In this document: positions 4,907-22,048 of the stretch, in pieces
Layout: each line of letters begins with the position of its first letter
How positions within the stretch are numbered: the first letter of the stretch is position 1
NCBI RefSeq assembly: GCF_056712565.1
Contig: NZ_CM160072.1
Direction: 5' to 3' (one strand)
Length of the DNA: 64,000 bases
Position numbers and translations under genes: made by a program
Notes under the pieces: model-generated
Database searches by the model: none
Told to the model about the DNA's origin: nothing
Seen by the model: only the letters and a program-made list of their open reading frames with translations

Positions 4907-4924
4907 GCTTAATGCTCCGATAGG

Positions 4925-5818
4925 TTATTTTTTTGCCTTTTTAGCGGCGAAATACGGCGTCCAGTCACCAGTTTCCAGCGCCTTGGCTTTCAATTTGTCG
5001 AGGTTGTTGATTACTGCGCCGTTGCTCCCCTTAACCGTCGGGGTTGTGGCTGCCGTGGTTTTTGCTTTTGGCATGATTCTGGCCTTCGATTCGATACGTT
5101 CCAGCAGACGACCAATTGCTACGGGGTTGGTAGCTTCTGCCAGTTGCTTGCGCAGTTCAGCGTTGCGACCAAGCGCCAGAACAACGATTTCCGGCTTCTC
5201 TGACTCAAACAGGATCGCGTTTTGTGTCTCGATGGGGATTTCCTCGAGTACGGCCTGCTCAGCTTCCTGATAGCCAGGAACTTTGAGAGCCTTAACACGT
5301 TGCTGATATTTGGATAATCGCTCTTGATAGGCAGCCTGAAGCTCCTGCTCCTTCTGCTTGCGAGCCATCTCCTGTTGCTGGTACTTGCCATTATCCTCTG
5401 CCCACTTAGCCATGCGTTGCTGGTAGATTTCTTCATCGAAACCGATGTCCTCATCATCCAGTTTTGGCATTCGCGGTGGTTGAGTGATTACCGGCTGCTG
5501 CTCGACGGGTTTCTGAGACTGACGCATCAGCTCTTTCAGCTCGCGGTCTTTCTCTTTAATCGTCTTGCGCAGGTGTTTTACCAGTCCATGCTCAGCGCCA
5601 TCTTCGCTGGTTGGCGAATCCAGCTTTTCGTCACCAAAGTAGAATTCCTGTTCTGATTCGTCGTCATCAGTTTCAGTAGCCTCCTCTGCATCATTGCCTG
5701 AGGACTCACTGCCATCTTCTGTTTCGACTTTTTCAGCCAGTTCGACATCATCAGGAATCTGCTCTGACGCGTCGGTTTCGATTTCAACTTCTGGTGTGTT
5801 TTCTGCCATCTGGTCCAT
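4925..5818 (-). CDS. Scaffolding protein gp8
   Basis: 297 aa, highly acidic N-terminus, charged helical repeats and a basic C-terminal helix-turn-helix tail (...YFAAKKAKK). Lies between portal and coat. Confidence 0.85.
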   Translation of the reverse strand: MDQMAENTPEVEIETDASEQIPDDVELAEKVETEDGSESSGNDAEEATETDDDESEQEFYFGDEKLDSPTSEDGAEHGLVKHLRKTIKEKDRELKELMRQSQKPVEQQPVITQPPRMPKLDDEDIGFDEEIYQQRMAKWAEDNGKYQQQEMARKQKEQELQAAYQERLSKYQQRVKALKVPGYQEAEQAVLEEIPIETQNAILFESEKPEIVVLALGRNAELRKQLAEATNPVAIGRLLERIESKARIMPKAKTTAATTPTVKGSNGAVINNLDKLKAKALETGDWTPYFAAKKAKK

Positions 5819-5908
5819 TTGTTACCCCTGTTTACTCGATGTTCAGCCCATCGGAAGGCAATAGGGTGCCAGGCCTCATAAAGACAGCCATTGCACGTTA
5901 TGGGTTAA

Positions 5909-8107
5909 TTACTGCTGTGGTTGTTGCTGAGTTGATTTTTGCAGGATGCTGCTGATGTCCATGCGCTGCGCATGGCCCTGTGCCTGACTTTTCAGGACAA
6001 GCTCTGCATCAGCACGGGCATTGTCTCCTTGCTGTTGCTGGAACTGTCCGAGCAGTTTCAGAGCCTCGCGGATATCAGATTTCTGCTGGCTATCGGCAGA
6101 TGCGAGGATTTTCACAACATTTGCCGCTGCAACCTGAGCATCAGTCTGTGCCTGGAATGCTTTAACCTGAATGGCTGCCTGCTCGTTCTGCGCTTTCTGC
6201 AATTCAGCCTGACCAGCAAGAAGCTGACCTTGCGCAGCAACCATAGCCGGATCTGGCTGACTGGCCTGTTGTTGTTTCGCCTGCTCAACCATCTGCTGTT
6301 CTTCTGGCGTTCTCGGCTTGATAACTCCAGACAGAAGCAACTGATTGCGGTTGTATTCTTTAAGGTCGTCCATCCCTTCGCCGTCCATATTGTCGAGGAT
6401 CATCGACGATACAAGGTCGTGTTTCGGCGTTCCGGGCGGGATAAGTGCCAGCATGGAAAGTAACGACTTAACCGTTGCGTCACGGCGAGTAGCGAACGAC
6501 TGACCGACATCGACAGTCACTTCATAGTTACCCTGCGAAAGGTCGTTAAGCGCGATAACCTGCCCTGTCTGACGGTCAACCACTTCACCAGTCATCAGCG
6601 CCACGTCATCGCTGCCGTCCTCATTAACGATACGCATCGGCGTATCGCTGCCATAGACTTCACGAGCCATAGAAAGCCACACAACGCCAGCGCGACGCAT
6701 GGATTTAGCCATGTTGTCCATGTAGATATAGGACTGCGTATCCATCCGGTTAAAGATGCTATCAACGGTATCGGTAGCAACGTTGCTCGGCATGTTCTCA
6801 AGCTGCGACGCACCTGTAATTTGCTGAATAGCCGTTCCGGTGTACTGCAATAGCCCGGCAAGAGCTGGAGGCATTTGTGTCGGAGGCGTATAACTGCTGA
6901 CCTGAGCCTGCGCAGTAATATCTCCGTTTTTGTTTTTCAGACTGACCATCGGCAGGAACGCCGGGCGCTTTTTGTTGCGCTCCGCCCAATGAGTGGCGAG
7001 AGGACCAGGAATCATGTCAACATCAACTACAGGAATGCCATCACCGCCAGCCTGAGTAGCGTTATCTGCAATCATGGAAACCATCAGGTTCTCAAGACGC
7101 TGTGCATCCATCGCTTTTGCTGCGTGGCCTTCGATTCGTTCCTGATTATCAACAAATGAGCGACGTCCATATACCGGGATGAGAGGAATATGTTCGCCCG
7201 GAATACGCTTCGGTTCTTCCAGCCATTCAGCGCCAGACAGAAGGCCGCAATAAACGCGGCGTTTCTTCACCGTTCGCTCGCCAATCAGTTCGAATGCACC
7301 ATCGGTCAGCTCGTCGACAATATCTTTGATTTGCTCTTCATCATAGATTGCCGTTTCTCCGCTAACAGGGTTGCGCCATGCCGTGAGCTTCACCTTCTCT
7401 ATGCGAACTTCGTAGTAGCGCCCAACATAGATGGCATCTGGCGTTGACCAGTCATATTGAGTGCCAGTCTCATCACGAGAAAGGCCTGCCGCGATGGAAT
7501 CAGGGTATTCAGCCTCGAACGCTTTAGGCGTCATGGAGAACATTTCCATAGCCCACATAGCATCAGAACGGTCATATTGCTTGCTGTCCTGATCGAAGAA
7601 GACGCATGTCGCTGGGTCGTAAACAGGAAGAAGGCTGATGCGTCGCTGCTCGTTACTTGGGTCCATTTCATCTTCGTAATCGGCACACATGCGGAAACAA
7701 CCGAATCCGCCCGTTACAGCATCATCAAATGCGTTATCACACGCTTCGCCACCTGATGTTTCCTGATAGTCAGCGCGGAATTTGCCGTTCATCTTTTTGG
7801 CTAACGCTTCCGATGCCTTGTCATCCTTCGGCCTGAATTTAACGCTGATGCGATTCTGTCGATACTCGCCAATGATGCGATCACATTCACGGGCAATCTT
7901 ATTCAGTTCAAAGCGCGGGTAATGCTCAAACCTGCCTTCATCAAATGAGTAACCAGCGTTTGTGCTGCCTTCCCACTGTGCGCCGGATACCCGGACGAAA
8001 CGTTGAGCCTCAATAATCTGCTCACGCATATCCTGCGTTGCTGACCAGGCATTATCAAAGTTGCACAGCACCTTGCGATGCCAGTCAGTCATCTTTTTTT
8101 CTGCCAT
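5909..8107 (-). CDS. Portal protein gp1
   Basis: 732 aa with a Gln/Ala-rich C-terminal barrel typical of P22 portal, immediately after TerL. Confidence 0.9.
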   Translation of the reverse strand: MAEKKMTDWHRKVLCNFDNAWSATQDMREQIIEAQRFVRVSGAQWEGSTNAGYSFDEGRFEHYPRFELNKIARECDRIIGEYRQNRISVKFRPKDDKASEALAKKMNGKFRADYQETSGGEACDNAFDDAVTGGFGCFRMCADYEDEMDPSNEQRRISLLPVYDPATCVFFDQDSKQYDRSDAMWAMEMFSMTPKAFEAEYPDSIAAGLSRDETGTQYDWSTPDAIYVGRYYEVRIEKVKLTAWRNPVSGETAIYDEEQIKDIVDELTDGAFELIGERTVKKRRVYCGLLSGAEWLEEPKRIPGEHIPLIPVYGRRSFVDNQERIEGHAAKAMDAQRLENLMVSMIADNATQAGGDGIPVVDVDMIPGPLATHWAERNKKRPAFLPMVSLKNKNGDITAQAQVSSYTPPTQMPPALAGLLQYTGTAIQQITGASQLENMPSNVATDTVDSIFNRMDTQSYIYMDNMAKSMRRAGVVWLSMAREVYGSDTPMRIVNEDGSDDVALMTGEVVDRQTGQVIALNDLSQGNYEVTVDVGQSFATRRDATVKSLLSMLALIPPGTPKHDLVSSMILDNMDGEGMDDLKEYNRNQLLLSGVIKPRTPEEQQMVEQAKQQQASQPDPAMVAAQGQLLAGQAELQKAQNEQAAIQVKAFQAQTDAQVAAANVVKILASADSQQKSDIREALKLLGQFQQQQGDNARADAELVLKSQAQGHAQRMDISSILQKSTQQQPQQ

Positions 8108-8108
8108 A

Positions 8109-9524
8109 TCAACCTACACCACAAGGAATTGAGTAACTGGAATAGTCGGGTTGCGCAGCCGACTCCGGGCAATGCATACACATCATCAGCGCATCAGCCA
8201 GGTTAGGAGATGGGATACCGAGCTTCTGCTTCATTTCGACCTTAGTCATAAGCTCCAGTTTCCCGTTATTATTGAATTTGCGCTGAATCTGCGTCAGTTC
8301 TGCAAACAGTTTCTCCAGCATCTTCTCGCCTATCGCTTCTTTGTCGAAGCTCAGCATGTCGTCGGGGTCTGCATACTCACCGTGGACAACCGCCCGATAT
8401 GTCAGATACAGCCTGTCAGCCAGCGCGTAATAGAATTGCGCTCGCTTATTGCGGAATACATCGCCAATAGTGCGAACGTTGTCACCCTGTACGACTTCAT
8501 CAGCCCATGCTCCGGCCTGATACGGAGCATCTTCATCGAATGGCGATTCGCTGCCCTTGAACATCGTGGCGGTAATTTTCTTGCCGGAGAATGCTTCCGT
8601 TGTCTGTCTGCGTAGCCCTGCACCGACACCATCGCCATCCCACAGGTAATGGTCAGCGCCGTCTTCAATCGCCAGCGAAGTAGCCCAGTCAGCACCCTCG
8701 TTGATGTCCATCAGCAGACCTTCGGCAATGCGCTTAACTACCGAACCGTGACGCGATGCATAACCTTTAGCATCTGGCCCTGTATCTGATGGGTCATGCG
8801 CAGAGACAACAGCGCCTTTCGCTTTCCATCCGAGTTTCTTGTGCGCATCGGTTGCGGCTTCAAGCCATTCACGTTTGATGATTGCCATATCACTTGCGCT
8901 TACTGGCTCACCAAGCCAGATGTGACGATACAGTGTCGGGTTTCTGCGTTTACACTCTTCCATCTCCAGACGGAGAACTTCAGGAAAGTGCGGGTTGTCG
9001 GTGTAGTTCACCGTCAGCAGACAAATATCATCGGGAGGGTTTACTACGAATCGCTGATAGGTATCGTCGAGGATGTTTTTCGGGTTGAAGCTCACCCATA
9101 TTTCGGAAAATGGCTTGCGGATGGTTGGTATCAGGATATCCCATGATTCCTTCGTTACCGCTTCCGCTTCCTCCACCCAGCAGATATCAATGCCTTCGAG
9201 CGATTTAATCTTCGTCGGGTTGTTTTTGATGCCGTAGAACATGAACTCAGCATTCGTCCCGAGATGACGAATCATGGAACGCTGAATTTCAAACTCAGCC
9301 GTATACCCTTCACGCTCTATGGTGTCTTCAAGCAGCCGGATTACCGAATCGCTGATACTGTTTTGCAGTTCACGAGCGCAGAGAATACGCACTGGCTGCC
9401 GACGCGCCGCTTCAACAAGCAGTCTCGCAATTGCCCATGATTTACCGCTACCTCGACCGCCTTTGGCGACTTTGTAGCGATGCGCCTCAATGAACGGTTC
9501 AAAGATAGGATTAATCGAGGTCAT
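8109..9524 (-). CDS. Terminase large subunit gp2
   Basis: 471 aa with Walker A VAKGGRGSGKSWA. Its start overlaps the TerS stop. Confidence 0.9.
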   Translation of the reverse strand: MTSINPIFEPFIEAHRYKVAKGGRGSGKSWAIARLLVEAARRQPVRILCARELQNSISDSVIRLLEDTIEREGYTAEFEIQRSMIRHLGTNAEFMFYGIKNNPTKIKSLEGIDICWVEEAEAVTKESWDILIPTIRKPFSEIWVSFNPKNILDDTYQRFVVNPPDDICLLTVNYTDNPHFPEVLRLEMEECKRRNPTLYRHIWLGEPVSASDMAIIKREWLEAATDAHKKLGWKAKGAVVSAHDPSDTGPDAKGYASRHGSVVKRIAEGLLMDINEGADWATSLAIEDGADHYLWDGDGVGAGLRRQTTEAFSGKKITATMFKGSESPFDEDAPYQAGAWADEVVQGDNVRTIGDVFRNKRAQFYYALADRLYLTYRAVVHGEYADPDDMLSFDKEAIGEKMLEKLFAELTQIQRKFNNNGKLELMTKVEMKQKLGIPSPNLADALMMCMHCPESAAQPDYSSYSIPCGVG

Positions 9525-9961
9525 TTTCCGAATAGAGTACTCATCGGTGATGTTTCAATCTGGATTGCGCCGCCGTCTTTGCCTGTTAGCTCGTGATCAA
9601 CCTTGTCGCGCCATTTATCCTTCTGTCGGTTCTTAAGCCAGAAGATGGCAGCTGTTGTATCAGGCGGGTAATACTTCTCAAGAGGAGTTTCGACAATTCT
9701 GTTTTCAATAACACGAATATCGATGTCTGGAGCCACGAAGCCCATAGCGCGTTGATAAAGACGGTCACTAACTTCTGCATCAGCGACGGCCTTACCCTTT
9801 TTTATGGACTCCGAAAACTCAGGATAATCAAGCTTCCACTTGTTAATAGTTGACTCACTGACTTCGAAGAAATCAGCAAGCTCTGCATCGGTGTAGCCCA
9901 GCAAGCACAGTTTGCGTGCCTGTTCGGCATACGCCTCTTGATACTTTGTTGGGCGCGCCAT
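9521..9961 (-). CDS. Terminase small subunit
   Basis: 146 aa, N-terminal helix-turn-helix (MARPTKYQEAYAEQARKLCLLGYTDAELADFFEVSESTINKW), immediately upstream of TerL. Confidence 0.7.
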   Translation of the reverse strand: MARPTKYQEAYAEQARKLCLLGYTDAELADFFEVSESTINKWKLDYPEFSESIKKGKAVADAEVSDRLYQRAMGFVAPDIDIRVIENRIVETPLEKYYPPDTTAAIFWLKNRQKDKWRDKVDHELTGKDGGAIQIETSPMSTLFGK

Positions 9962-9963
9962 GT

Positions 9964-10206
9964 TTATGCTCCGGTGGTGAACAGGTCTAACGCTTCCTTC
10001 GATTTACGCACCGCTTCGATAGTGCGGGTCGTGATATCTGAATTAGCGCCGCCTGACTGGAAGTGAATTTTGAATAGCTCAAGCTTCAGTTCGTCAGTGC
10101 CAATGAACTGAAATGCTTCCTCTGCGGCTGCGTTCTGGTTCATGACCAGCTTGTAAATCTCTAACTGGAATTTCTGTTCTTCAGTCATGGGAATAATCTC
10201 TGCCAT
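9964..10206 (-). CDS. Hypothetical 80-aa protein (P22 orf80-like position)
   Basis: 80-aa ORF between the Rha gene and TerS. Confidence 0.5.
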   Translation of the reverse strand: MAEIIPMTEEQKFQLEIYKLVMNQNAAAEEAFQFIGTDELKLELFKIHFQSGGANSDITTRTIEAVRKSKEALDLFTTGA

Positions 10207-10433
10207 TGTTGGCTCCGTTTATCCGTTAAAAGGGATATCAGTTAAGTTATCCCGTGTAGGGTATAAGCCATTGTCGAGACCACTCATTGAATGGTCTCTG
10301 CAATAACCGATGTCTTTCCATCAGTCCGCCACCACAAAGAATCTTTTTTGCCATAAGGCAGGAGGTTCATCTTTCAGTGGCTGCCAGTGTTATTTCCCCA
10401 CTTTCTGGCTTGGGTTGTTTCGCTGTACTGCCG

Positions 10434-11045
10434 TTAATTGGTGAGTCCGGGGATTACGGTTTGCCCGTGCTGTTCAAGGCGTTCAATTCTCGCCAGTAGC
10501 TGAGGCTTCTTAATTTTTCCCCAGCGATTAAGCAGGCGGCCTGACATGCTGGCAACATCCTTCTCTTTCATGTACTCCAGCATTACGGCATTTCTCTCTT
10601 CTTCAAATTGACGATGACCAACCTGAAGCATGGCGTACATCCAGTTGAATGCGTTGATGTAAGCAATTTTGATACGCATTGCTTCTTTTTTGGTGTAGGA
10701 CATAACCAAAAGCATCAACCCATCCTTGCGGAGACGGTAGAATTTTTGCGGCTTACCATTCTGTAACTCATTGTTTTTATAGCAAAGCTCAAAGTTGAGC
10801 TTTGTATCAAACTCAGGAGGGCAAGCTTCTATGGTTCGTTCAATGTCACGAACCACGTTCTTCGGCAGCTTTCCAAATGCTTTTGCCACCATAAAAGAAT
10901 CTGTAACCGGATCGTTGTTTGCTACAAAAATTAGGTCTCTGAAATCTATATCGTTAACAACGGTTGGGTAGTTCATTGCGTCTTTACCTTTTAGAAAGAT
11001 GAGCCTGTTCGCACAGAAAAGCCGCCCCGAGATGGTCGCCACCAT
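10434..11045 (-). CDS. rha: Rha-family phage regulatory protein (P22 orf201-like). An alternative start at 10976 would give 180 aa.
   Basis: Phage_pRha motif VANNDPVTDSFMVAKAFGKLPKNVVRDIERTIEA, between the lysis and packaging genes. Confidence 0.7.
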   Translation of the reverse strand: MVATISGRLFCANRLIFLKGKDAMNYPTVVNDIDFRDLIFVANNDPVTDSFMVAKAFGKLPKNVVRDIERTIEACPPEFDTKLNFELCYKNNELQNGKPQKFYRLRKDGLMLLVMSYTKKEAMRIKIAYINAFNWMYAMLQVGHRQFEEERNAVMLEYMKEKDVASMSGRLLNRWGKIKKPQLLARIERLEQHGQTVIPGLTN

Positions 11046-11121
11046 ATACGGCAGTTCTCAGGCTCAGCTTTCTGAAAGACTCGGGATTGTTACGCGCTGC
11101 GATGCGCGGTTTACTGCAGAT

Positions 11122-11148
11122 ATAAAAAAGCCCCGCGAATGCGAGGCT
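11122..11148 (-). terminator. Intrinsic terminator downstream of the lysis cassette
   Basis: Minus-strand GCCUCGCAUUCGCGGGGC followed by UUUUUUAU. Confidence 0.6.
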
Positions 11149-11321
11149 AAATCCTGGTATTTGTAATGACTGGCTCTTATCTCAACGCAGCCCCTTACCG
11201 CGCGCCAGATGCTCAATATCAAGCATCAGCAATGAGATGTTTAATCTGGATTCACTCCAGAAGTGATCACCACCCTGTCTACAGAGCCAGATGTGAAGGA
11301 TGATGAGTAAAATTATCGCTA

Positions 11322-11759
11322 TCATCGAAGGCATTGCGTCCTGATGTACTCCTGCAGGTAGTTAACCTGCGCGGTTATCCTGTCGATTCCACTTCGGAGA
11401 CGGTAATAATTGAGTTCAGCATCTGCTGTAAGTCTTGGGTTTTCTCCATCGCCCATGCTGCTGGCTCCGGTCGTTGACTTTGCACAGGTGGCGGCGACTT
11501 GCAGGCGCTTACGCCCAGCAGAAACATCAGCACGGAGACTTTCGATAGTCGCGTTAGCATCAGCAAGCTCCTTTGTGTATCTTGCGTCGAGTTCTGCTAC
11601 ATCACGTTGACGCTTCCGCATATCAGCGATGATGGATGTGGCTTTATCGCGCTGCTCTTTGTAGGCGATTGCATTATCACGGTAATGATTAACAGCCCAT
11701 GACAGGCAGACGATGATGCAAATAATCAGAGCGGAGATAATCGCGGTGACTCTGCTCAT
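11322..11759 (-). CDS. Rz: Rz (inner-membrane spanin component)
   Basis: 145 aa, N-terminal transmembrane segment, coiled coil, lambda Rz-like. Confidence 0.9.
11375..11566 (-). CDS. Rz1: Rz1 (outer-membrane lipoprotein spanin component) embedded in Rz in the +1 frame
   Basis: 63 aa with lipobox LLGVSAC and a proline-rich segment, wholly inside Rz. Confidence 0.85.
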
Positions 11760-12232
11760 ACCTCAATCTCTCTGACCGTTCCGCCAGCCTCTTTGAATTT
11801 TGCAATCAGGTTGTCAGCCTTATGCTCGAACTGACCATAACCAGCGCCCGGCAGTGAAGCCCAGATATTGCTGCAACGGTCGATTGCCTGACGAATATCA
11901 CCGCGGTCAATCATCGGTAAAGCGCCACGCTCTTTAATCTGCTGCAATGCCACAGCGTCCTGACTTTTCGGAGAGAAGTCTTTCAGACCAAGCTGCTTAC
12001 GGTAGGCATCCCACCAACGGGAAAGAAGCTGGTAGCGTCCGGCGGCTGTTGATTTGAGTTTTGGGTTTAGCGTGACAAGCTTGCGAGGGTGATCGGAGTA
12101 ATCAGTAAATAGCTCTCCGCCTACAATGACGTCATAACCATGATTTCTGGTTTTCTGCCGTCCGTTATCAGTTCCCTCTGACCACGCCAGCATATCGAGG
12201 AACGCCTTACGTTGATTATTGATTTCCACCAT
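11756..12232 (-). CDS. R: Endolysin (lambda R-type transglycosylase)
   Basis: 158 aa, [28 protein letters not shown]..., essentially lambda R. Confidence 0.95.
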
Positions 12233-12539
12233 CTTCTACTCCGGCTTTTTTAGCAGCGAAGCGTTTGATAAGCGAACCAATCGAGTCAGTACCGATGTAG
12301 CCGATGAACACGCTCGTTATATAAGCGAGATTGCTACTTAGTCCGGCGAAGTCGAGAAGGTCACGAATGAACCAGGCGATAATGGCGCACATCGTTGCGT
12401 CGATTACTGTTTTTGTAAACGCACCGCCATTATATCTGCCGCGAAGGTACGCCATTGCAAACGCAAGGATTGCCCCGATGCCTTGTTCCTTTGCCGCGAG
12501 AATGGCGGCTAACAGGTCATGTTTTTCTGGCATCTTCAT
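12216..12539 (-). CDS. S: Holin (lambda S-type, dual start MKM)
   Basis: 107 aa, [27 protein letters not shown]..., essentially lambda S105/S107. Confidence 0.95.
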
Positions 12540-12663
12540 GTCTTACCCCCAATAAGGGGATTTGCTCTATTTAATTAGGAATAAGGTCGATTACTGATAG
12601 AACAAATCCAGGCTACTGTGTTTAGTAATCAGATTTGTTCGTGACCGATATGCACGGGCAAAA

Positions 12664-12694
12664 CGGCATGAGGTTGTTAGCGCAACCTCATGCC
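12664..12694 (-). promoter_or_regulatory. Conserved lambda-like hairpin in the S 5' flank
   Basis: Inverted repeat GGCATGAGGTTG...CAACCTCATGCC followed by GTTTTGCCC on the transcribed strand. The surrounding ~200 nt read like the lambda sequence preceding S. Confidence 0.4.
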
Positions 12695-12999
12695 ACCCGC
12701 TTTCACGAAGGTCATGTGTAGAAGGCCGCAGCATAACTATCACTGATGAATTCAGGATAGCCAGTGGCTACGGCTCAGGTTGGGTTGTGGCGGTCGGTGC
12801 TGAACTCCGACTTAATGACGATAGGCGTGTACCGACGCCTCGTTTTACTTCCTCCGCTTTCACGGCTTCACCCTAGACCAGCTTTACGAAATCCTCGTAA
12901 ACCTAACCGCGGCAGATATGACCGGCACGGTGTGCCATATCACGGACCGGCGGGTGTCTCGTTCACCTGATTAACGCATCAGCCTGCGTATTCACCACA

Positions 13000-13135
13000 A
13001 CGATAAGAGTACTGCGCGGCACCTTTCACCAATTCCGCGAGGTCTGCGGGTTCAATGCTCTTACCTGTTGTGCAAACAAAAAAGCCACCGTTGCAACTTA
13101 AGAGTCACTAACGGCAGCTTACCTTCTAATTATGG
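13000..13135 (-). promoter_or_regulatory. Late promoter pR'/qut region with a tR'-like element downstream of Q
   Basis: By position immediately after Q. Segment ...GGCTTTTTTGTTTGCACAACAGGTAAGAGCATTGA resembles lambda tR' and its downstream flank. The exact -10/-35 elements were not resolved. Confidence 0.4.
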
Positions 13136-13654
13136 CTAAATGGATAATTGCATGTCAAGGTTTTTAACAGCAACATGCTTAACTTTCTCAACACGTTTAC
13201 GCATTTTGAAAGCATTTTGCATTGGCTGGTATAAAACAAATAATGACGCTTTCAGGATGTCGTCAATTTCGTTTCTACAGGTTGCCAGTGAAGGTTTTCT
13301 CCATCCCTCGCCACCACGTCCACACATCTTGCGTGGCTTTGCAGTCGCGTGATAGTAGGATGCAATTGCTCGCTTAGATGAACCATGAGCGTAGTAGCTG
13401 AGGAGGATGCCAAAGGCTTTCTTGTCAATGTACATGACGGAATCAACGACCTGAGAAATCAACATTCCATCATCATCATTACACATTGGCCTTGTCATAA
13501 TTCTTCCCGGCTCTACGCTCTCCATGAACTTCGCTATTACGCTGCTCATGCGCTTTTCCAGACGACCTGAATAAACCCATGCGCCCCACAGTTCAAGCCA
13601 GCCATTCAGCCACTCGTGCTGCTCTTTGGTGAGGTTTAGTTCTCTTATGCTCAT
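13136..13654 (-). CDS. Late antiterminator Q (phage-82 / quuD-like family)
   Basis: 172 aa with WGAW...RP.C.DDD motifs as in Phage_antitermQ; not lambda Q-like. Confidence 0.7.
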   Translation of the reverse strand: MSIRELNLTKEQHEWLNGWLELWGAWVYSGRLEKRMSSVIAKFMESVEPGRIMTRPMCNDDDGMLISQVVDSVMYIDKKAFGILLSYYAHGSSKRAIASYYHATAKPRKMCGRGGEGWRKPSLATCRNEIDDILKASLFVLYQPMQNAFKMRKRVEKVKHVAVKNLDMQLSI

Positions 13655-13839
13655 CGTCTTCCCCTCTTGCCTTGTTTGACCATCAGGACGCCGTTAACTA
13701 TTACGTGACGCTCGCCTTTGCTGTCTCGGTTGTACTTGAGCACTGTTCCTCTTGCGCAGGAAAGCATCCTCGCCACTTCGGTCTGATTGCCTCGTGTCTG
13801 GATAAGAAGCTCTGGTATCGTTTGAATTGTGGCGTTCAT
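13651..13839 (-). CDS. ninH: NinH
   Basis: 62 aa, ...IPELLIQTRGNQTEVARMLSCARGTVLKY..., close to lambda NinH. Confidence 0.85.
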   Translation of the reverse strand: MNATIQTIPELLIQTRGNQTEVARMLSCARGTVLKYNRDSKGERHVIVNGVLMVKQGKRGRR

Positions 13840-14198
13840 GCGTTCTCCAGTTCGGTGATTTTTATTCCAAGCCGTCCGCCTGGTACTTTCACACCACGAA
13901 TTACGCGAATGTCATCGAATTGCTCGTCGTCTTCCGCAAATCCGGCGTGGATAAGGGAGTCGAGTAAACCTTTCAGGATGTTGTCGAGGTCGCGGCGGCG
14001 GGAGTCTGGAACGTCTGCGATGACTTTGATACGGAGTCGTGATTTGGTGAAAATGTCTAACTTGAGTTGGCGGATGATTTGCTGAACGTCTTTTCGGTAT
14101 TTCTGGCCTTTATCGCTTATGTAATATTGGCTTCCCCGTCTTCGCCAGTAGGTATTCACCGACGGCGGGTATGGAAGCACAAACTGATATTCGTTCAT
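13836..14198 (-). CDS. rusA: RusA Holliday-junction resolvase
   Basis: 120 aa with the RusA motif ...DSRRRDLDN... Confidence 0.9.
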   Translation of the reverse strand: MNEYQFVLPYPPSVNTYWRRRGSQYYISDKGQKYRKDVQQIIRQLKLDIFTKSRLRIKVIADVPDSRRRDLDNILKGLLDSLIHAGFAEDDEQFDDIRVIRGVKVPGGRLGIKITELENA

Positions 14199-14485
14199 GA
14201 CTTAATCTTCCCCTCCCTCAGCAGTATCGCCTGCGTTCTGATCACGCCTTCGAGGTGGTAAAGTCTGGCGTCTTTGTTGTCGAGATTATGGGTGCGTCGG
14301 TCGATTTCATCGTGACACGCACTACAAGCCCATGCACCGATCAGGTCGTCAGGCTTCATTCCCGTTCCGCAAATTCCAGCCATCCGGTAATGTGCCAGAA
14401 CTGTAGTTTCAGGGTTGCCATTGCATACGCCGTAAATACGTACCTGACATTCTCTTCCGCGCGCTTCTTTGCGTAGGTTAGCCAT
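14195..14485 (-). CDS. YbcO-like (DUF1364) nin-region protein
   Basis: 96 aa, MANLRKEARGRECQVRIYGVCNGNPETTVLAH..., close to DLP12 YbcO. Confidence 0.8.
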   Translation of the reverse strand: MANLRKEARGRECQVRIYGVCNGNPETTVLAHYRMAGICGTGMKPDDLIGAWACSACHDEIDRRTHNLDNKDARLYHLEGVIRTQAILLREGKIKS

Positions 14486-15207
14486 TAAGCAGCCTCCCCT
14501 GTTACTTTCAGCATTCCGTTATCGAGCAGCTTTCTGGTCAGCCACTGTTGACCACGCCCGGTGATTTTTGTGGTGAACGATATCTGTATTCCGTGATTTG
14601 TGTTGACCGCTGTTTCTTTCACTGTGAAATAGCCGCGATCCATATATTCCTGCATTGGCACATTGCGCCGGGAACCTGAAGCAATAAGGATTTTGTGATC
14701 ACGCATCCACGCAAACAGTTTGTTTTGACCAATACCAACAACCTTTGCAAAGTTTCCAATCAAAATTCCGCTGGCCTCGCCAACGCGATCGGCAAACTCA
14801 ACTTTAGGTGCGACAATTGCGAGCTGGTTTTCCAGTTGCATTTTCTGCTCAGCAAGATCGGCAGCAAGGCGCAACGCTTCCGGTAGCGTTTTGGGGATAT
14901 TAACCGCAGCTTCTTCAAGCTCTCGCCAGCGGTCAACAAGGCGAGCGGTGAACTCTGGCGACAACTGGGCAACAACGACAATACTGTCTCGCTTACCTTG
15001 TTCGCCCTCGAAGACGTAATGCTCGTACTGAACATTGAACCCTAAGTTATTGATTCTTTCGGAAACCTCAATTTGAGGAAGCCGGATAACACCATTTTTA
15101 GCCAGCGTTTCGATGGTACGTTTCACATTGTCATGACGCTTACCAACCAACTCAGCAATTTCAATGCTTGTCATTTTGATGGCATTGCCATTCATTAACT
15201 CATTCAT
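14485..15207 (-). CDS. Rha-family regulator with C-terminal antirepressor-like (KilAC) domain
   Basis: 240 aa. N-terminal Phage_pRha-like SIEIAELVGKRHDNVKRTIETL plus a larger C-terminal domain. Confidence 0.7.
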   Translation of the reverse strand: MNELMNGNAIKMTSIEIAELVGKRHDNVKRTIETLAKNGVIRLPQIEVSERINNLGFNVQYEHYVFEGEQGKRDSIVVVAQLSPEFTARLVDRWRELEEAAVNIPKTLPEALRLAADLAEQKMQLENQLAIVAPKVEFADRVGEASGILIGNFAKVVGIGQNKLFAWMRDHKILIASGSRRNVPMQEYMDRGYFTVKETAVNTNHGIQISFTTKITGRGQQWLTRKLLDNGMLKVTGEAA

Positions 15208-15376
15208 CGTCTTCTTCCTCGTACATTGAGCTATTCGGATCGCTCATCAGTTCTGCGCAGCAATCGGAGCACACGTGAACTTCAAGCACATGCAGCTTCT
15301 GACCGCAGTTAGCGCACGTTAATGCCCGCTCGACGCTTTCTTTCTGGTATTGAAGGGATTGGGATGGGCTAAGCAT
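15200..15376 (-). CDS. ninF: NinF (58 aa; absent from the ORF track because it is under 60 aa)
   Basis: [44 protein letters not shown]..., close to lambda NinF. Confidence 0.8.
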   Translation of the reverse strand: MLSPSQSLQYQKESVERALTCANCGQKLHVLEVHVCSDCCAELMSDPNSSMYEEEDDE

Positions 15377-15794
15377 TATTGGCGTCCTGCATCATGAGAA
15401 ATACAATCATGGCGGCGCGGAGTGGAGATTCACCGCAGAAGTAGTAGCCAGGAATATTTTCCCATTCCCAACAACCTTCCTCTAAATCACCTCCTGACCA
15501 TGCGCACCATTCTTTTTCCGCTGTCATCCACATAGTGCTGATTTTGCTTTCAGTGATAATTGGCCACGCGTATTCAGGATTATTGCAAGGATTGAAGCAA
15601 TTTCCGTTTGAAGAACGGAAGCCATTAATATCCCTTTTTTGCGTCTGCCAAATAGGACCTCTTTCGTCAGTGGGGATCTCAGAATCGAAGTCTGCTTCGT
15701 CATCAGGTATGAAGAAATGCTCCTCCATATCTAAAGCCTCACATACTCGTCTGTTAATTTCAAAATCACTTAACTGTGAATAATCCATTGTCAT
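15369..15794 (-). CDS. Hypothetical nin-region protein (~141 aa from [17 protein letters not shown]...)
   Basis: ORF between ninE and ninF, Cys/Trp-rich. Its start overlaps the ninE stop. Confidence 0.55.
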
Positions 15795-15967
15795 TTCCTC
15801 GCACGATGTCTTAGCAACCGGATATCCCACAGGTGAGCCGTGTAGTTGAAGGTTTTTACGTCAGATTCTTTTGGGATTGGCTTGCGTTTATTTCTGGTGC
15901 GTTTCGTTGGAAGGTATTTGCAGTTTTCGCAGATGATGTCGGTGATACTTCGTCGCTGTCGCCTCAT
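15791..15967 (-). CDS. ninE: NinE
   Basis: 58 aa from an internal [37 protein letters not shown]..., close to lambda NinE. Confidence 0.85.
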
Positions 15968-16374
15968 TCGTACCTCCTGTCGGTAAATCTGACACCCTGA
16001 CCAATAGCCCATGCTGTTGTGTACTCGATCAGACTTGCCATACGCTTCACACTCATCTGCGCGCTGCTTTCGCGAATGTTGACGTATTCGCCTTCAAGCC
16101 CGGGCAAAACATCAGCTTCCTGTTTTGTTGCCACTGCATGACCGCTGATCAACAAAACCTTCCATTGTTCTGGTTTTAACCATTTATCGCGCCACTGAAC
16201 TTGCCTAGCGATATCTGCGACCATCGCGTGAAATTTTGCGTTCTGGTCAAGGTTGCGCTTGTAGTCAGTAATGCGGATGGTGACTGGCTTGTCTTTATCG
16301 AGTGGTGTTGCGAGGATGGCATTTATTGCAGCTTGCTGTTGTTGCTTAGTTCGGAGGAATATTGTTTGCTTCAC
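15964..16374 (-). CDS. ninB: NinB (Orf-family recombination mediator)
   Basis: 136 aa, ...[21 protein letters not shown]..., close to lambda NinB. Confidence 0.8.
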
Positions 16375-16385
16375 TGAATACTCCT

Positions 16386-16577
16386 TTATTTTTTATGCCT
16401 GTAACCCCATTCTTCCAGCAACCTTGCGGCGTACCACCCAAGAAACAAAGGAAAGAACATTACAATGAGATATTTCCCGCCACGGTCAATGTTCGAAATT
16501 GACCAGATTACGATGTAACCAGTGCAGGACAGGAATATTACAAACCCCAAAAAGCTACTTCGTCGACTCATGCTCAC
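16386..16577 (-). CDS. Small predicted membrane protein (63 aa, two hydrophobic segments)
   Basis: Hydrophobicity pattern of the ORF. No family recognised. Confidence 0.4.
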   Translation of the reverse strand: MSMSRRSSFLGFVIFLSCTGYIVIWSISNIDRGGKYLIVMFFPLFLGWYAARLLEEWGYRHKK

Positions 16578-16888
16578 TCCTTCACTTTGATTCCAGCGGC
16601 GCGGATAGCCTCTACATCGCTTTCGTATTGCGATTCTGCACCTGAGTCATAGCCAATGTGATAATCACCGGGAAGTGGGCCTTTCTTTGGCTTTTGCAGC
16701 TCAATTTCAATAGCTGCTCTCGATGCCTGCCACGTTTGCCAGTGGCCTTGAACATCGTCCATCACGTATTGACCACCAATATCACCACTGCCAATTTCAT
16801 GGTGATTTTCAGGGTAACGGATAAGGTCTGAAGATTCGCCCCCCACGTCGTAACCAACTCTCTTCAAACTGGCATCTGCTTTCGTCAT
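16574..16888 (-). CDS. Hypothetical protein (104 aa). The start is uncertain because it overlaps the upstream Cys-rich ORF.
   Basis: ORF only. Confidence 0.4.
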   Translation of the reverse strand: MTKADASLKRVGYDVGGESSDLIRYPENHHEIGSGDIGGQYVMDDVQGHWQTWQASRAAIEIELQKPKKGPLPGDYHIGYDSGAESQYESDVEAIRAAGIKVKE

Positions 16889-16991
16889 CTTTCATAAGGC
16901 AGTCACATTCAATAAAAATCGGCTCTCCCCAAGGAGTAGAACCTCCGCTATCACACATTCCTGTGTTATTGCACTTTTGGCACTTGCTCAC
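16809..16991 (-). CDS. Small Cys-rich protein (60 aa, CxxC...CxC zinc-ribbon-like). Overlaps the 104-aa ORF by about 80 nt in another frame.
   Basis: MSKCQKCNNTGMCDSGG...ECDC. A single frameshift could make this one gene with the 104-aa ORF. Confidence 0.35.
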   Translation of the reverse strand: MSKCQKCNNTGMCDSGGSTPWGEPIFIECDCLMKDDESRCQFEESWLRRGGRIFRPYPLP

Positions 16992-17003
16992 ATTAACCTC
17001 CGA

Positions 17004-17210
17004 TTAACTCACAAAACGCCACGCCACTTTTGCTACGACAACAGGCATAACACCGATAATCACCCACAGAAAAATGCTACCGAAAAGCACACCAACCAGG
17101 TCTTTACCTTCGCCTACCAACCGGACAAAACTGCTGGCAACCACAATGAACGTCGCCACCATCCACATAGCACCGAGAATCCTCAATGCAGAAAAAATCA
17201 ACTCAACCAC
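17004..17210 (-). CDS. Small predicted membrane protein (68 aa, two hydrophobic segments)
   Basis: Hydrophobicity pattern; first gene after the tR2-like terminator. Confidence 0.4.
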   Translation of the reverse strand: MVELIFSALRILGAMWMVATFIVVASSFVRLVGEGKDLVGVLFGSIFLWVIIGVMPVVVAKVAWRFVS

Positions 17211-17223
17211 GATTTACCCTCCC

Positions 17224-17257
17224 CCAAATAAAAAGGCCTGCGATTACCAGCAGGCCT
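17224..17257 (-). terminator. tR2-like intrinsic terminator between the helicase and nin genes
   Basis: Minus-strand hairpin AGGCCUGCUGGUAAUCGCAGGCCU followed by UUUUAUUU. Confidence 0.6.
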
Positions 17258-17282
17258 GTTACAAGCTCAGTGATGTAGATGG

Positions 17283-18659
17283 TCATACGTCAGCCCCTTG
17301 TGCATATCGTCTGCCACGCGCAGCAGGTGCATTTGATGCTGTGCAAATCTGTCTGGCTTCATCCTGGTCACATGCAACAAAGTGTCCGTTGCAGAACCGC
17401 TGGTAAACCGTACCAAGTGAGCCAAAACGGTTTTTCGTCACGATGATTTCAGCAAATGGCGCGGCGCTACTGTTCTCGTCATATACCGCTTCCCGATAGA
17501 GCATGATGATTGAGTCTGCGTCCTGTTCAATGCTTCCTGAATCACGCAAATCTGCGTTTGTCGGGCGTTTGTTTGGTCGCTTCTCAACATCGCGTGAAAG
17601 CTGACTCAGGGAAATAACCGGTGTTTTCAGGTCTTTCGCCATCGCCTTCAGGCTTCCGGAGATGTGAGCAATTGCGAGGTCGTTGCGGTCTGCTTTCGGC
17701 TTCTCAATCAGGCCAAGATAATCCGCCATGATGAGTGAGAGGTTTGGATTTTCCTGTTTGTGCCGTTCTGCGATTGAGCGTATTTCTTCGACCGATAATC
17801 GCGAGGCATCGACTACCCATACATCCAAATCTGCAAGCTGACTCATGCCGTTAGCAACACGTGCCCAGCCCTCGTCATCCATCGATGCAGGATTTCGCAG
17901 TACGCTAACCGACATCCTCCCGGCGTTGGCAATGCTTCGCTCTGCAATCTGCAATGCGCTCATTTCCATTGAGAAAATCAATACCCCGCGCCGGACGTCA
18001 GAACCAGGAATAACGCGGCTTGCAACGCCTTCGGCAATCTTCAGCGCCAGTTCGGTTTTCCCCATACCAGGACGAGCAGCGATTATCACCAGGTCTTCCG
18101 CGTTCATCCCTCCGGTGATGGCATCAAGTTCTTCGATTCCGGTCTTCAGGGTATCGGACTCTTCTCCGTTCCTCAGACGCCTGTCAAGCGTGTCAGTGTA
18201 GTCGGTGATGATTTCCCCTAACCGTACAGGTTTAACCTCGTCACGGGGCTTTCTGATGGCTGAGAGACGTTTTACAAGTTCATCCATCGCCTGACTCGAT
18301 GCGTCGATGGTTCCGCTTTGGATTGGTTCACGCATTTCATCCATGATTTCCAGCACCAGACGGCGGTGATAGTTATCCGCGACCATTCCGGCATATCCCT
18401 TCAGGTTTGCGGCGCTCGGGCAGTTTTTGCTGGTCATCAGGATTGACGTGAAATGCTCCTCTCCGCACGCCTCGGCAACCATCAGCGCGTCGATTAGGTT
18501 TCTGTTTCTCGCCTGCTTCCGGATAACCTCGAAGGCTTTCCGGTAGAGCGGAATTGAAAACGCTTCCGGCTCCAGCGTTGCAAGAACGTCACTGGCGGTT
18601 GGAGTTAATCCACCAATCAGCAGGCCACCGATAACGCTCGCTTCGATATCCTGTCTCAT
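17283..18659 (-). CDS. Replicative DNA helicase (DnaB-like, P22 gene 12 type)
   Basis: 458 aa with a DnaB C-terminal RecA-like domain (Walker A GMGKT). Confidence 0.9.
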
Positions 18660-19603
18660 GCAATCCCCCTGTCTGCAAACTTCCCTTCCCGAACTCCCGT
18701 TAACGAGTCTTCTCTCAGCAGGTAATCAAAATCAGCCGTCCAGCCCGTGTCGTTGTCTCCGAAGTAAAACGGCTTGGCCTGATGCACAAACGCCCTGACA
18801 TACGCTCTGAAACCGTCCACGTTTGGCGTTTTCAGTTGCGGGATGATTTTCTTCAGGCGGCGTTTTCGTTTCTCGTTGACCGCAACAGCGTGTGGCAGTC
18901 TGTCACCGACTTCGGTGTTGTAGGCGTTCAGGAAGGATTCGTAGTCGATTCGTTCTGCCTTGCGACGTTCAGGTTTAACCTGCCCATCGCCTCCCCCATT
19001 GGGGGGTAGGGGGGTATTATTTATATTCTTGTTAATACCTTCTTGTTCATGATGTGCGGTTGTTTGTGCGGCTTCATGTGCGCTTTCATGTGCGGCATGT
19101 ACGCTGAAAGCCGCGCTATTGCTGGCTTCATCATGTGCGGCATCATGTGCGGTTGTTTGTGCGGCTTCATGTGCGGGTAAATTGTCCATTTTTTGAGCAT
19201 ATTCATGGTAATTTGTGATGGTTATCACACGGCCTTTTTGCTTCTCTCCATCAATGGAGATCATCCCCTCTTTCACAAAAACCTGAAGCATCCGCTCAAC
19301 CTGATCACGGCTTGCTGGCTTGCCATGTCTGTCGCATAACTGAAGACCTAAATCAGCTGCTGTCACAACCAGTTGACCGGGTTGCAGATGCCATTCATGA
19401 CCTTTGAAATTCGCTTTGTATGGCTTTCTGGCGGCATTCAGGAGAAGGTTTTCCCACAGGGTGCGAAGATAAACATCTTTCGCCCATGACTGTTTCAGAA
19501 TGCTCCGGTACAACGGAATGTAACCAGTTTTCTGGTTCTCCATCCTGTTGCTCCTGCGCTCGTGTGCGGCGCTGAAATCGTAGATTTTTGCTGTATTGCT
19601 CAT
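18656..19603 (-). CDS. Replication initiator O-like (P22 gene 18 type)
   Basis: 315 aa, with an N-terminal O-type domain and a His/Ala-rich repeat linker encoded by DNA iterons. Confidence 0.8.
19040..19240. repeat. Putative ori: iterons (CATGTGCGG-type units, two ~33-bp copies) inside the O gene, followed by an AT-rich stretch
   Basis: Direct repeats atgtgcggttgtttgtgcggcttcatgtgcg at ~19050 and ~19143 with additional partial units, then aaattgtccattttttgagcatattcatggtaatttgtgatgg. Confidence 0.55.
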
Positions 19604-19605
19604 AA

Positions 19606-19878
19606 CTACCTGCCTTGACGAAAGACCTTAAGAACATCGTTAAACTGACTTACGGATATGTCTTCTTTGAGAAGCTTTTCCAGAAATGCGTTTGGAATGA
19701 ACGTATATCCCTCCTCTTTTGGTAGAGACGGGAGCAACGCCCTCGCCTCAGCCTTCAGAAGCTCAGTTCTGGCAACTTTCACAAAAGAGATTTGAGTTCT
19801 TTCATCAATGGAACGAAGGAAGCGCAAACGCTTAGCTTCTTTGTGTGTATCAGGTGGATTAAAGCCTTTGTTTCGCAT
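19606..19878 (-). CDS. Hypothetical 90-aa protein between cII and O
   Basis: ORF starting MRNKGFNPPDTHKEAKRLRFLRSIDERTQISF... The longer 181-aa version in the track needs an implausible upstream extension that overlaps cII. Confidence 0.45.
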   Translation of the reverse strand: MRNKGFNPPDTHKEAKRLRFLRSIDERTQISFVKVARTELLKAEARALLPSLPKEEGYTFIPNAFLEKLLKEDISVSQFNDVLKVFRQGR

Positions 19879-19900
19879 ATAATTACCTCGTTGGATGTTG

Positions 19901-20194
19901 TTAAAATTCCATTTGTATTTGATCAGAACGCTCGGTTGCCGCCGGGCGTTTTTTATTGGTGAGAATCGAAGCAACTTGTCGTGCCAATCGAGCCATGTCG
20001 TCGTCGACAACACCCCATTCAAGAACAGCAAGCAGCATTGAGAACTTTGGAATCCAGTCCCTCTTCCACCTGCTGATCTGCGACTTATCAACGCCCACAG
20101 CTTCCGCTGTCTTCTCAGTTCCAAGCATTGCGATTTTGTTAAGCAACGCACTCTCGATTCTTAGAGCCTCGTTGCGTTTGTTTGCACGAACCAT
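19901..20194 (-). CDS. cII: CII transcriptional activator (lambda-type)
   Basis: 97 aa from an internal ATG, MVRANKRNEALRIESALLNKIAMLGTEKTAEAVGVDKSQISRWKRDW..., essentially lambda CII. Confidence 0.9.
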   Translation of the reverse strand: MVRANKRNEALRIESALLNKIAMLGTEKTAEAVGVDKSQISRWKRDWIPKFSMLLAVLEWGVVDDDMARLARQVASILTNKKRPAATERSDQIQMEF

Positions 20195-20227
20195 ATGTAA
20201 GTATTTCCTTAACAAATAAGAAGTTAT

Positions 20228-20296
20228 GCGCATCAACTTATGCGCGTTGTATTCCCGCATTTCGGCGGGAATGAGGACCATGACTGTTAAAGAGCA
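20228..20296 (-). promoter_or_regulatory. nutR (boxA TGCTCTTTAACA plus boxB hairpin CCCGCCGAAAUGCGGG) and a tR1-like hairpin (GCGCAU...AUGCGC plus U-rich tail)
   Basis: Between cro and cII. The boxB RNA is identical to the one in the pL leader. Confidence 0.6.
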
Positions 20297-20302
20297 ATTT
20301 GC

Positions 20303-20488
20303 TTATGCCGCTTTGCGGTAAGCGCTTTCTTGATACTTCAGGGCGCCAGCTGTAACGACTTCCAGTCGATAGGCGTCTTTCTCTGGGATGACTTCCTTCC
20401 ACTGAGAGACTGCTGCGTCGCTAATGCCTAACGCTTTAGCTACAGCACGCTGGGTTCCGAAGTGGTCGATAACATCTTTCTTGTACAT
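20303..20488 (-). CDS. cro: Cro (P22-type)
   Basis: 61 aa, MYKKDVIDHFGTQRAVAKALGISDAAVSQWKEVIPEKDAYRLE..., as P22 Cro. Confidence 0.9.
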   Translation of the reverse strand: MYKKDVIDHFGTQRAVAKALGISDAAVSQWKEVIPEKDAYRLEVVTAGALKYQESAYRKAA

Positions 20489-20568
20489 AGACTCGCTCCG
20501 AAATTAAAGAACACTTAAATTATCCACTAAAGGAATCTTAAGTCAAGTTTATTTAAGATGTCTTAACT
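20489..20568. promoter_or_regulatory. OR operators with divergent pR / pRM (P22 immC type)
   Basis: Palindromic TTAAG...CTTAA operators such as ATTAAAGAACACTTAAAT. A pR candidate on the minus strand is TTGACT-17-GATAAT. Confidence 0.7.
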
Positions 20569-21219: not shown

Positions 21220-21220
21220 G

Positions 21221-21246: not shown

Positions 21247-21249
21247 TCC

Positions 21250-22040: not shown

Positions 22041-22048
22041 GGTGATAT

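Follow-up and report, generated by a model that had tools for sequence, protein, structure and literature searches.

Results

A tRNA-shaped RNA in the gap between Q and S

Positions 12540..13135 of the 64,000-nucleotide stretch analysed here (contig NZ_CM160072.1 of NCBI RefSeq assembly GCF_056712565.1; hereafter the window) are exactly the 596-bp non-coding gap between the antiterminator gene Q (13654..13136) and the holin gene S (12539..12216) of an E. coli prophage, both on the minus strand, in the gene order rusA, ninH, Q, gap (13135..12540), S, R and Rz. An earlier reading made from the letters only (the sequence-only reading) had delimited this non-coding Q-S interval correctly but had regarded its insertion site as empty. 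The site is occupied by a conserved hairpin, H1, followed by a 215-nt element with the outline of a tRNA, and this tRNA-shaped element belongs to a large family of phage RNAs whose three helices covary. The parts found in the window are as follows.

12996..13072, minus strand: hairpin H1, with arms CACAACAGGUAAGAGCA and UACUCUUAUCGUUGUG closing a variable apical part
12785..12999, minus strand: tRNA-shaped element, 215 nt, made up of P1, P2, a variable core, P3 and a final A at 12785
12999..12993 (UGUGGUG) with 12792..12786 (CGCCACA), minus strand: P1 of the element, 7 bp, an acceptor-like closing stem
12989..12974, minus strand: P2 of the element, D-like, ACGC-AGGCUGAU-GCGU
12811..12793, minus strand: P3 of the element, T-like, GUCGG-AGUUCAGCA-CCGAC, directly before the 3' strand of P1

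H1 has a predicted folding energy (dG) of -29.3 kcal/mol (z -2.5), and its arms recur with other apical sequences in phages lambda, IME10, HK629 and HK75 and in Klebsiella, Salmonella Skatevirus and PDP46 phages. For the tRNA-shaped element, the unconstrained minimum-free-energy fold of 12999..12785 (-74.8 kcal/mol) reproduces P1, P2 and P3. A covariance model, R1, was derived from 28 members with other cores and with no window-type sequences among them; it matches the window at 12999..12925 (E 3.4e-7) and 12875..12785 (E 1.9e-5), and the window copy carries all parts of the R1 family in order, i.e., P1, P2 with its loop AGGCUGAU, the core, and P3 with a AGAUCAGCA-like loop. As in a tRNA, a 7-bp acceptor stem is formed from both ends of the element and a T-like arm adjoins its 3' strand. 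The 3' arm of H1 and the 5' strand of P1 have UGUG (12999..12996) in common; because they share these nucleotides, H1 and P1 cannot both be complete. This overlap between the modelled folds suggests a switch, or else folding and processing in a set order.

The 3' arm of H1 (window 12996..13011) also contains UACUCUUA, where most other lambdoid members have UGCUCUU(A/U). The motif is paired inside H1, and we take it to resemble the boxA of N- and rrn-type antitermination.

A widespread and covarying family

A distant search with the middle of the gap detected short, highly similar intergenic pieces in Salmonella Skatevirus, Klebsiella, Aeromonas, PDP46 and other unrelated phages. The same design is repeated across those loci: a long H1 hairpin and then an element whose ends pair, as UGUGGUG...CGCCACA do in the window. 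A pattern scan of IMG/VR yielded more than 120 loci among the matches listed, and the family amounts to more than 150 copies among the matches listed, which is a lower bound, in phages and prophages of Gamma-, Beta- and Alphaproteobacteria; R1 matches 111 copies in 100 loci, tandem arrays of two to three included. The family architecture consists of a 7-bp P1, the trinucleotide AAU, P2 (GCGC-AGGCUGAU-GCGC), a core, P3 (GCCGG-AGAUCAGCA-CCGGC) and the 3' strand of P1, with cores of about 25-300 nt that are unrelated between alleles. Members also have a long upstream hairpin with a 3' arm overlapping the 5' strand of P1, a trait that the window exhibits in H1. Upstream helices of 12 bp or more (median 18) that take in 4-6 nt of the P1 5' strand were found in 81 of 116 non-redundant members as against 29 of 116 when the upstream sequence was shuffled, whereas upstream pairing of the first 4 nt of P1 was not discriminating (103/116 observed and 86/116 shuffled).

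Pairing within the element is maintained through sequence change. With P3 located independently of P1, P1 pairs at seven of seven positions in 141 of the 153 listed copies, and 71% of the 34 P1 sequence types are fully paired in comparison to 11% with shuffled partners. In an alignment of 75 distinct copies, from which the core had been excised, pairing holds in 98.3% of cells and both partners have changed in 11 pairs; none of 500 shuffles reached the observed value and slid partners gave 29-53%. Compensatory changes affect four of the seven pairs of P1, three of the four pairs of P2 and four of the five pairs of P3. Covariation across the family thus establishes the three-helix structure. 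The two hairpin loops of the family are, in addition, complementary to each other (GCUGAU/AUCAGC), and in one second copy, the divergent L171, both loops change together (ACUGAU/AUCAGU); this is the sole compensatory example, and one of the loops was fixed by the search pattern. A loop-loop (kissing) contact between the D-like and T-like loops, as predicted from these sequences, is suggestive only.

Several members lie close to tRNA genes or resemble parts of them. Among 184 listed copies, 23 are within 1 kb of a tRNA gene and all 23 are on the same strand as that gene. A canonical T arm occurs just before the 3' arm of H1 in 9 of 116 H1 regions versus none in the reverse-complement control, and one core (L090) has a Lys(UUU)-like anticodon arm (GCGGA-CUUUUAA-UCCGU). 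Tandem hairpin plus tRNA-like units, in twos or threes, were observed in Klebsiella phage KlebP_265 (L011 1194..1630) and in loci L150, L162, L171, L124 and L078, in many cases immediately ahead of genuine tRNA genes with the same orientation. The cores of the window, Aeromonas phage 62AhydR11PP (L009 1502..1724), L182 and L158 share sub-terminal segments (UUAAUCAGGUGAACGAGA ... AAAACGAGGCGUC-loop-ACGCCUAUCGUCAUUAAG) and differ at their centres, so that a second conserved frame with a variable insert is nested inside the first.

True copies were present in genomes of Kosakonia, Erwinia, Pectobacterium, Klebsiella, Pandoraea, Caballeronia, Achromobacter and Pelagibacterium. These come from a 16-base pattern scan of genome contigs in which about 10 of 120 listed rows passed a test for P1 and P3 and the rest were mostly chance, so that the scan indicates host range and not abundance. 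Lambda has a reduced version that keeps H1 and a TGTGCTG/CAGCACA closure, and in the HK75 allele a canonical T arm is accompanied by a sub-threshold match of tmRNA type (20.2 bits against a gathering score of 47); R1 does not detect these lambda and HK75 variants, and their relation to the family is by inspection only. Weak partial matches to the Rfam tmRNA model were seen in the HK75 and L135 alleles only. In K-12, DLP12 has no copy. Qin of K-12 has a weak relative (R1 E 0.014) between cspB and essQ (L191 5063..5170, minus strand, corresponding to NC_000913.3 about 1641062..1641169), with TGTGGTG/CACCACA as its closing strands and an intrinsic terminator after it, at an unannotated site.

A scan of 12000..14000 against Rfam 15 with cmscan at E <= 1 returned a spurious snoU85 match only; the models for AgvB, AsxR, STnc100, IsrK and other prophage small RNAs (sRNAs) were negative, and the tmRNA model RF00023 had no match in the window region. 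The RNAs known from this slot (the 6S/StxS leaders, AgvB, AsxR, Pas and STnc100) are different RNAs and were rejected as its identity. No Rfam 15 family overlaps the element in 28 further related loci at permissive thresholds. We did not find the element described in the full-text literature searched by concept and by literal sequence; most subscription journals were outside the reach of this search and an older description is possible. The family is therefore large and covarying but apparently uncatalogued, being outside Rfam 15 and the literature searched. Weak matches to the model of the tRNA-like element at window 21399..21507 (plus strand) and CUS-3 33467..33575 (E 0.25 and 0.17), in the cI-N spacer annotated as bsq5 by CUS-3, are probably noise.

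The gap as a mosaic of three modules

The remaining features of the locus are listed below.

12779..13072, minus strand: exchangeable cassette (H1 and the tRNA-shaped element) between the two junctions; the same slot in Sf6 holds tRNA-Asn and tRNA-Thr
12540..12789, minus strand: lambda-type S 5' flank (bsq3 of CUS-3), 96% identical to lambda and reaching the S ribosome-binding site and dual start
12665..12694, minus strand: conserved hairpin GGCAUGAGGUUG-CGCUAA-CAACCUCAUGCC followed by GUUUUG, a perfect 12-bp stem with a 6-nt loop
12216..12539, minus strand: holin S, lambda type, first lysis gene of S-R-Rz (Pfam PF05106, E 2.4e-30)
13136..13654, minus strand: Q antiterminator of the phage-21 family, 172 amino acids, from PDB, Pfam and PHROG matches
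13129..13158, minus strand: late promoter pR', with -35 TTGACA at 13158..13153, -10 CATAAT at 13134..13129 and a spacing of 18
13076..13120, minus strand: terminator tR', 21-type, with stem 13120..13082 and U-run UUUUUU at 13081..13076

Window positions 1..26772 are a CUS-3-like prophage, 98-99.9% identical to CUS-3 12745..40207 as far as the attR core, which ends at 26772; two segments within it, 15424..17254 and 22052..22880, are replaced relative to CUS-3, and the remainder of the window beyond 26772 is host chromosome. The gap is 100% identical to phage CUS-3 (CP000711; E. coli K1 RS218) over all 596 bp and 99.5% identical to phage Huey end to end, and at least 80% of it is found in 116 of 5426 complete E. 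coli genomes; strain ATCC 11775 has an identical copy. Full-length alignment with one known phage is the very outcome that the sequence-only reading had named as refuting it, and the mosaic is the already known, deposited and annotated arrangement of CUS-3. The late-operon leader of CUS-3 has the same order, ninH-Q-gap-S-R-Rz, and the window prophage is CUS-3-like over 24 kb. There is no difference from CUS-3 in the gap sequence; the CUS-3 record labels the two ends only, as the boundary sequences bsq4 (window 13135..13072) and bsq3 (window 12780..12540), and leaves the middle 291 bp unannotated.

Junctions were placed by local BLAST against lambda, Sf6, HK75, IME10 and HK629. Lambda 44936..45185 matches 12789..12540 at 96% over 250 bp, and the homology runs on past the gap through S, R and part of Rz at 93% DNA identity; a second lambda match in the gap, of 32 bp, is located at 13083..13052, directly past the terminator. 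Sf6 matches 13135..13073 and 12778..12540 and has its tRNA-Asn and tRNA-Thr genes between them. The matches of HK75 and HK629 reach further into the middle of the gap, and IME10, which has a lambda-type Q, has the same cassette (13083..12540 at 94% identity). The left 63 bp of the gap are a pR'/qut/tR' module of phage-21 type that ends at 13073, and the middle 294 bp match neither the lambda nor the phage 21 type. The gap is thus composed of three modules, the 21-type pR'/qut/tR', the 294-bp cassette at 13072..12779 and the lambda-type S flank, with two junctions at 13073/13072 and at about 12789..12778. The general idea of a non-lambda Q joined to a lambda-type S flank, as put forward in the sequence-only reading, holds. 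Its ~600 bp of lambda-like flank shrink to 12789..12540, hairpin included, the left and middle parts not being lambda-like, and its one breakpoint in 12800..13100 is replaced by two, of which 13073/13072 lies inside that interval and the other just outside.

In HK629 (locus L007, 984..1496 and 1501..1650) Q is separated by an HNH endonuclease gene from a further copy of the 21-type tR' region, after which come H1 and the tRNA-like element.

The Q antiterminator and its control region

The Q of the window is a member of the phage 21 family. With phmmer, residues 1-162 matched the phage 21 Q structures 6JNX_P (E 1.3e-91) and 6P18_P (E 3e-91); the other matches were to Pfam PF06530 (E 1.6e-25, 89.8 bits with a cut-off of 26) and PHROG phrog_943 (E 5e-93). 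PF06530 corresponds to the Q21/Q933W family, and the Q21, Q-lambda and Q82 families have no significant mutual similarity (bioRxiv 10.1101/651190). At E <= 0.01 the only Pfam matches were PF06530 and DUF1133, with no 82-type family. Hence the expectation that Q is not lambda-like was borne out, but an 82-type Q was rejected since the best PDB and PHROG matches are of Q21 type (E 1e-91 for PDB 6JNX/6P18) and PF06530 belongs to the Q21 family; this exclusion was made through family matches, the comparison with phage 82 being by family assignment and not by its sequence.

Q is itself a mosaic with a junction near 13348. Residues 1-102 are ~98% and residues 103-162 ~60% identical to phage 21 Q, and the window protein is 10 amino acids longer. 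The Q protein of phage L has the same split between near-identity and divergence relative to Q21, with the divergent part being the DNA-contacting region (phage L paper).

Prediction of promoters and terminators, as the sequence-only reading had proposed, located pR' (13158..13129) and tR' (13120..13076). The promoter has a consensus scan score of 11/12 and overlaps the end of Q, whose TAG stop codon is at 13138..13136; it is annotated at the same position in HK75 and in Sf6 ('nearly identical to phage 21 late promoter'). The terminator, which was overlooked by a simple terminator scanner because its loop is longer than the limit of the scanner, has the predicted features of an intrinsic terminator, i.e., a G+C-rich hairpin (dG -20.2 kcal/mol, z -4.4) with an immediate U-run, downstream of a late promoter. 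A terminator and qut are annotated at this position in the Sf6 and HK75 records. By homology the putative qut or Q-binding element (QBE) overlaps about 13129..13081. This region has 98% identity with the part of Sf6 that is annotated as 'similar to phage 21 qut site'. For Q21-type proteins the cognate element consists of two 8-bp subsites in direct repeat, and a sigma-dependent pause occurs shortly after pR'; the C-terminal DNA-contacting part of the window Q differs from Q21. RNA terminated at tR' would be a leader of ~45 nt, with both its start and its length derived from the sequence. As for 6S of lambda and StxS of Stx phages (PMC7547250), the 21-type pR'-tR' unit should yield a short terminated RNA in the lysogen, but the leader predicted here is shorter. 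Window positions 13121..13078 are 100% identical in an O157:H7 Stx2c prophage. The Stx2c phage of O157:H7 E32511 has this identical tR' followed by three tRNAs and stx2c, in agreement with the suggestion that the slot is a cargo site in Stx and other lambdoid phages.

The S-flank hairpin and small open reading frames

A hairpin placed at 12664..12694 by the sequence-only reading does exist and is shared with lambda, but its exact coordinates are 12694..12665. Its predicted dG is -27.9 kcal/mol (z -5.6 versus shuffles). The lambda form (GGCAGGAGGUCG...CAACCUCCUGCC) differs by one compensatory pair change (U-A to G-C) and one mismatch, and in 46 alleles mostly 10-11 of the 12 pairs are present with one or two mismatches, which shows that the perfect stem is not strictly conserved. 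On its predicted fold, the hairpin may act like a terminator or in RNA stability.

The statement that the gap has no open reading frame (ORF) is correct with regard to a credible protein gene, but there are mechanical ORFs of 68, 50 and 31 amino acids. The 68-amino-acid ORF (12764..12970, plus strand) and a 47-50-amino-acid ORF (12743..12591, minus strand) are hypothetical proteins in the Huey annotation, and the 50-amino-acid ORF (12591..12743, minus strand) matches phrog_22751 (E 1.4e-29). This ORF has in-frame stops or indels in at least 13 of 46 alleles, and its variable columns are distributed over the codon positions as 7/11/10, i.e., with no codon-position bias; a protein-coding gap was rejected on these two grounds. 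The family phrog_22751 probably originates in false ORF predictions that cover a conserved RNA hairpin.

Discussion

A late-operon leader with a proposed tRNA-like processing module

Our results make it likely that the gap is the late-operon leader of a CUS-3-like (P22-like) prophage, put together from three exchangeable modules, with the tRNA-shaped RNA as a candidate processing module. In the first module, transcription would stop after ~45 nt without Q and would read through with Q, by homology to phage 21 and Sf6. The second module, a 294-bp non-coding cassette in the tRNA slot, encodes H1 and then the 215-nt tRNA-shaped RNA, and the third is the S 5' flank of lambda type together with its strong, conserved hairpin. 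This patchwork probably arose by recombination at short conserved boundaries, one just past the U-run of the terminator and the other at the 3' end of the tRNA-like element. On a read-through late transcript, the element may be recognised by tRNA-processing enzymes (RNase P and 3' processing nucleases) in the same manner as the tRNA genes that replace it elsewhere. Cleavage would separate the leader from the lysis/structural mRNA and free a stable tRNA-shaped RNA, and the overlap of H1 with the closing stem could make this cleavage conditional or sequential.

RNase P, RNase Z and the CCA-adding enzyme recognise the acceptor stem, the T arm and the elbow of their substrates and ignore the anticodon region. 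The conserved parts of the element (the acceptor-like stem, the T- and D-like arms and the putative loop contact) are those recognised by these enzymes, and its variable core takes the place of the anticodon region. Since the element and tRNA genes also replace each other one for one, our best guess from shape and context is that it serves late transcripts as a tRNA-like module for processing or stability.

A close comparison is with the lambdoid tRNA genes found past tR' in phage 21, Sf6, L and the Stx phages, which occupy the same slot after the U-run, have the same strand and late co-transcription, and are exchanged as cassettes. The window element differs from these genes in its length of 215 nt, its 9-nt T-like loop, the Watson-Crick complementarity of its D- and T-like loops and the lack of an anticodon arm and of CCA. 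There are several RNAs that are tRNA-like without being tRNAs, such as the tRNA-like domain of tmRNA, the bacterial Y-RNA-like YrlA, the phage T4 stable RNA species 1 and 2 (encoded in a tRNA cluster) and the mascRNA of MALAT1. As in these RNAs, the ends of the element form an acceptor-like stem beside a T-like arm, with a non-tRNA insert between. Like the T4 stable RNAs, the element sits in a tRNA cluster and, like mascRNA, it could be an RNase P handle on a long transcript. There is, however, no sequence or model match to these RNAs in the window and neither a tag reading frame nor a Ro-binding stem is evident. The putative loop-loop pairing and the competing upstream hairpin are features of the window element and not of tmRNA, YrlA, the T4 RNAs or mascRNA. 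Among sRNAs, the anti-sRNAs AgvB and AsxR are encoded 3' of pR' at the moron site of Stx phages (PMC4104026); this is the same slot, but their Rfam models match nowhere in 12000..14000.

Several observations weigh against a processing module. The joint minimum-free-energy fold of H1 and the element favours H1 over P1. There is no tRNA or tmRNA gene in 12000..14000 according to ARAGORN (0 genes), and the Rfam tRNA model RF00005 has no match there at E <= 1; the element departs from a canonical tRNA in its T-like loop (AGUUCAGCA, 9 nt), in having no anticodon arm, and in its tail, which is ACCC and not CCA. The evidence for the family has weaknesses of its own: the search pattern fixed the P2 loop and the anchor required P3 pairing, making loop conservation and the P3 paired fraction partly circular; shuffle tests are inflated by relatedness, as related sequences beat shuffles even without structure; and the R1 E-values are rough, with the window copy recovered solely as two half-matches. 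Finally, the full element is missing from lambda, Sf6 and the Stx2c phage and so cannot be essential to late expression.

Alternative explanations

A wider proposal, which we hold only tentatively, is that H1 and the tRNA-shaped element form a widespread undescribed class of phage RNA, with remnants even in lambda, in which H1 and P1 act as a switch and a tRNA-mimicking scaffold carries a rapidly exchanged core. Such an RNA may be a decoy or regulator in phage-host conflict or a tRNA-like punctuation of late mRNAs.

The main rival to the processing reading is the hypothesis that the variable core is a payload or decoy: the scaffold would carry a trans-acting core, diversified in an arms race and stabilised by the frame, that could serve as a sponge, as a base-pairing regulator or as a decoy against defence nucleases that target tRNAs. 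Near-identical scaffolds carry wholly different cores, a nested sub-scaffold is common to the window, the Aeromonas phage, L182 and L158, and one core mimics a Lys(UUU) anticodon arm. An intrinsic terminator follows some members (such as the K-12 Qin copy and L115), as in stand-alone sRNA genes, and regulatory sRNAs are hosted by this slot in Stx phages (PMC4104026). However, the cores have no common motif and a tenfold range of length, which fits an unconstrained region equally well, and the anticodon-like core was seen once only. We therefore consider this explanation unlikely.

It is also conceivable that the middle of the gap is a recombination scar in which the conserved pieces are homology patches for module exchange, with no RNA function and a functionally empty site. 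The CUS-3 and Sf6 records do place boundary sequences exactly at the gap ends, the junctions in all of the phages compared are at the same short conserved stretches, and many alleles of the 12694..12665 hairpin are recombinant and mismatched. Yet homology patches have no need of pairing, whereas the three helices stay paired through changes on both sides. Moreover, the element occurs in unrelated contexts of non-lambdoid phages (Klebsiella, Aeromonas, Skatevirus and PDP46) and in prophages of Beta- and Alphaproteobacteria, where lambdoid exchange does not apply. A scar is for these reasons an improbable account of the cassette.

We regard as more doubtful still that the cassette is a decaying pair of pseudo-tRNAs, drifting neutrally after descent from a cluster like that of phage 21 or Sf6. 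Such a history would explain the tRNA slot, the cloverleaf-like layout, the rejection of the cassette by tRNA finders and the canonical T or anticodon-like arms of some alleles (HK75, L090 and 9/116 H1 regions). It is opposed by the invariant non-canonical loops (AGGCUGAU and AGAUCAGCA) and the compensatory pairs across more than 75 distinct copies with unrelated cores, and tandem arrays of one non-canonical design would be unexpected under neutral decay.

That the gap encodes small proteins can be all but dismissed: both the 68-amino-acid ORF (plus strand) and the 47-50-amino-acid ORF (minus strand) are annotated in Huey and the latter has its phrog_22751 match (E 1.4e-29), but this ORF is broken in at least 13/46 alleles with variable columns of 7/11/10, and the former, which starts with GTG and lacks a PHROG match, runs antisense to late transcription across the covarying helices of the RNA.

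Significance

As first posed, the mosaic at this locus is an ordinary textbook lambdoid case. The interest lies in a covarying tRNA-shaped RNA with a competing hairpin, situated just past tR' in a much-studied regulatory region of phages. The 'boundary sequences' of phage modules can be the ends of a structured RNA and not mere patches of homology. If the family is real and functional, it would bear on why phages keep tRNA-like sequences at the heads of their late operons, on how late polycistronic RNAs are processed, and on whether tRNA mimics take part in phage-host conflict.

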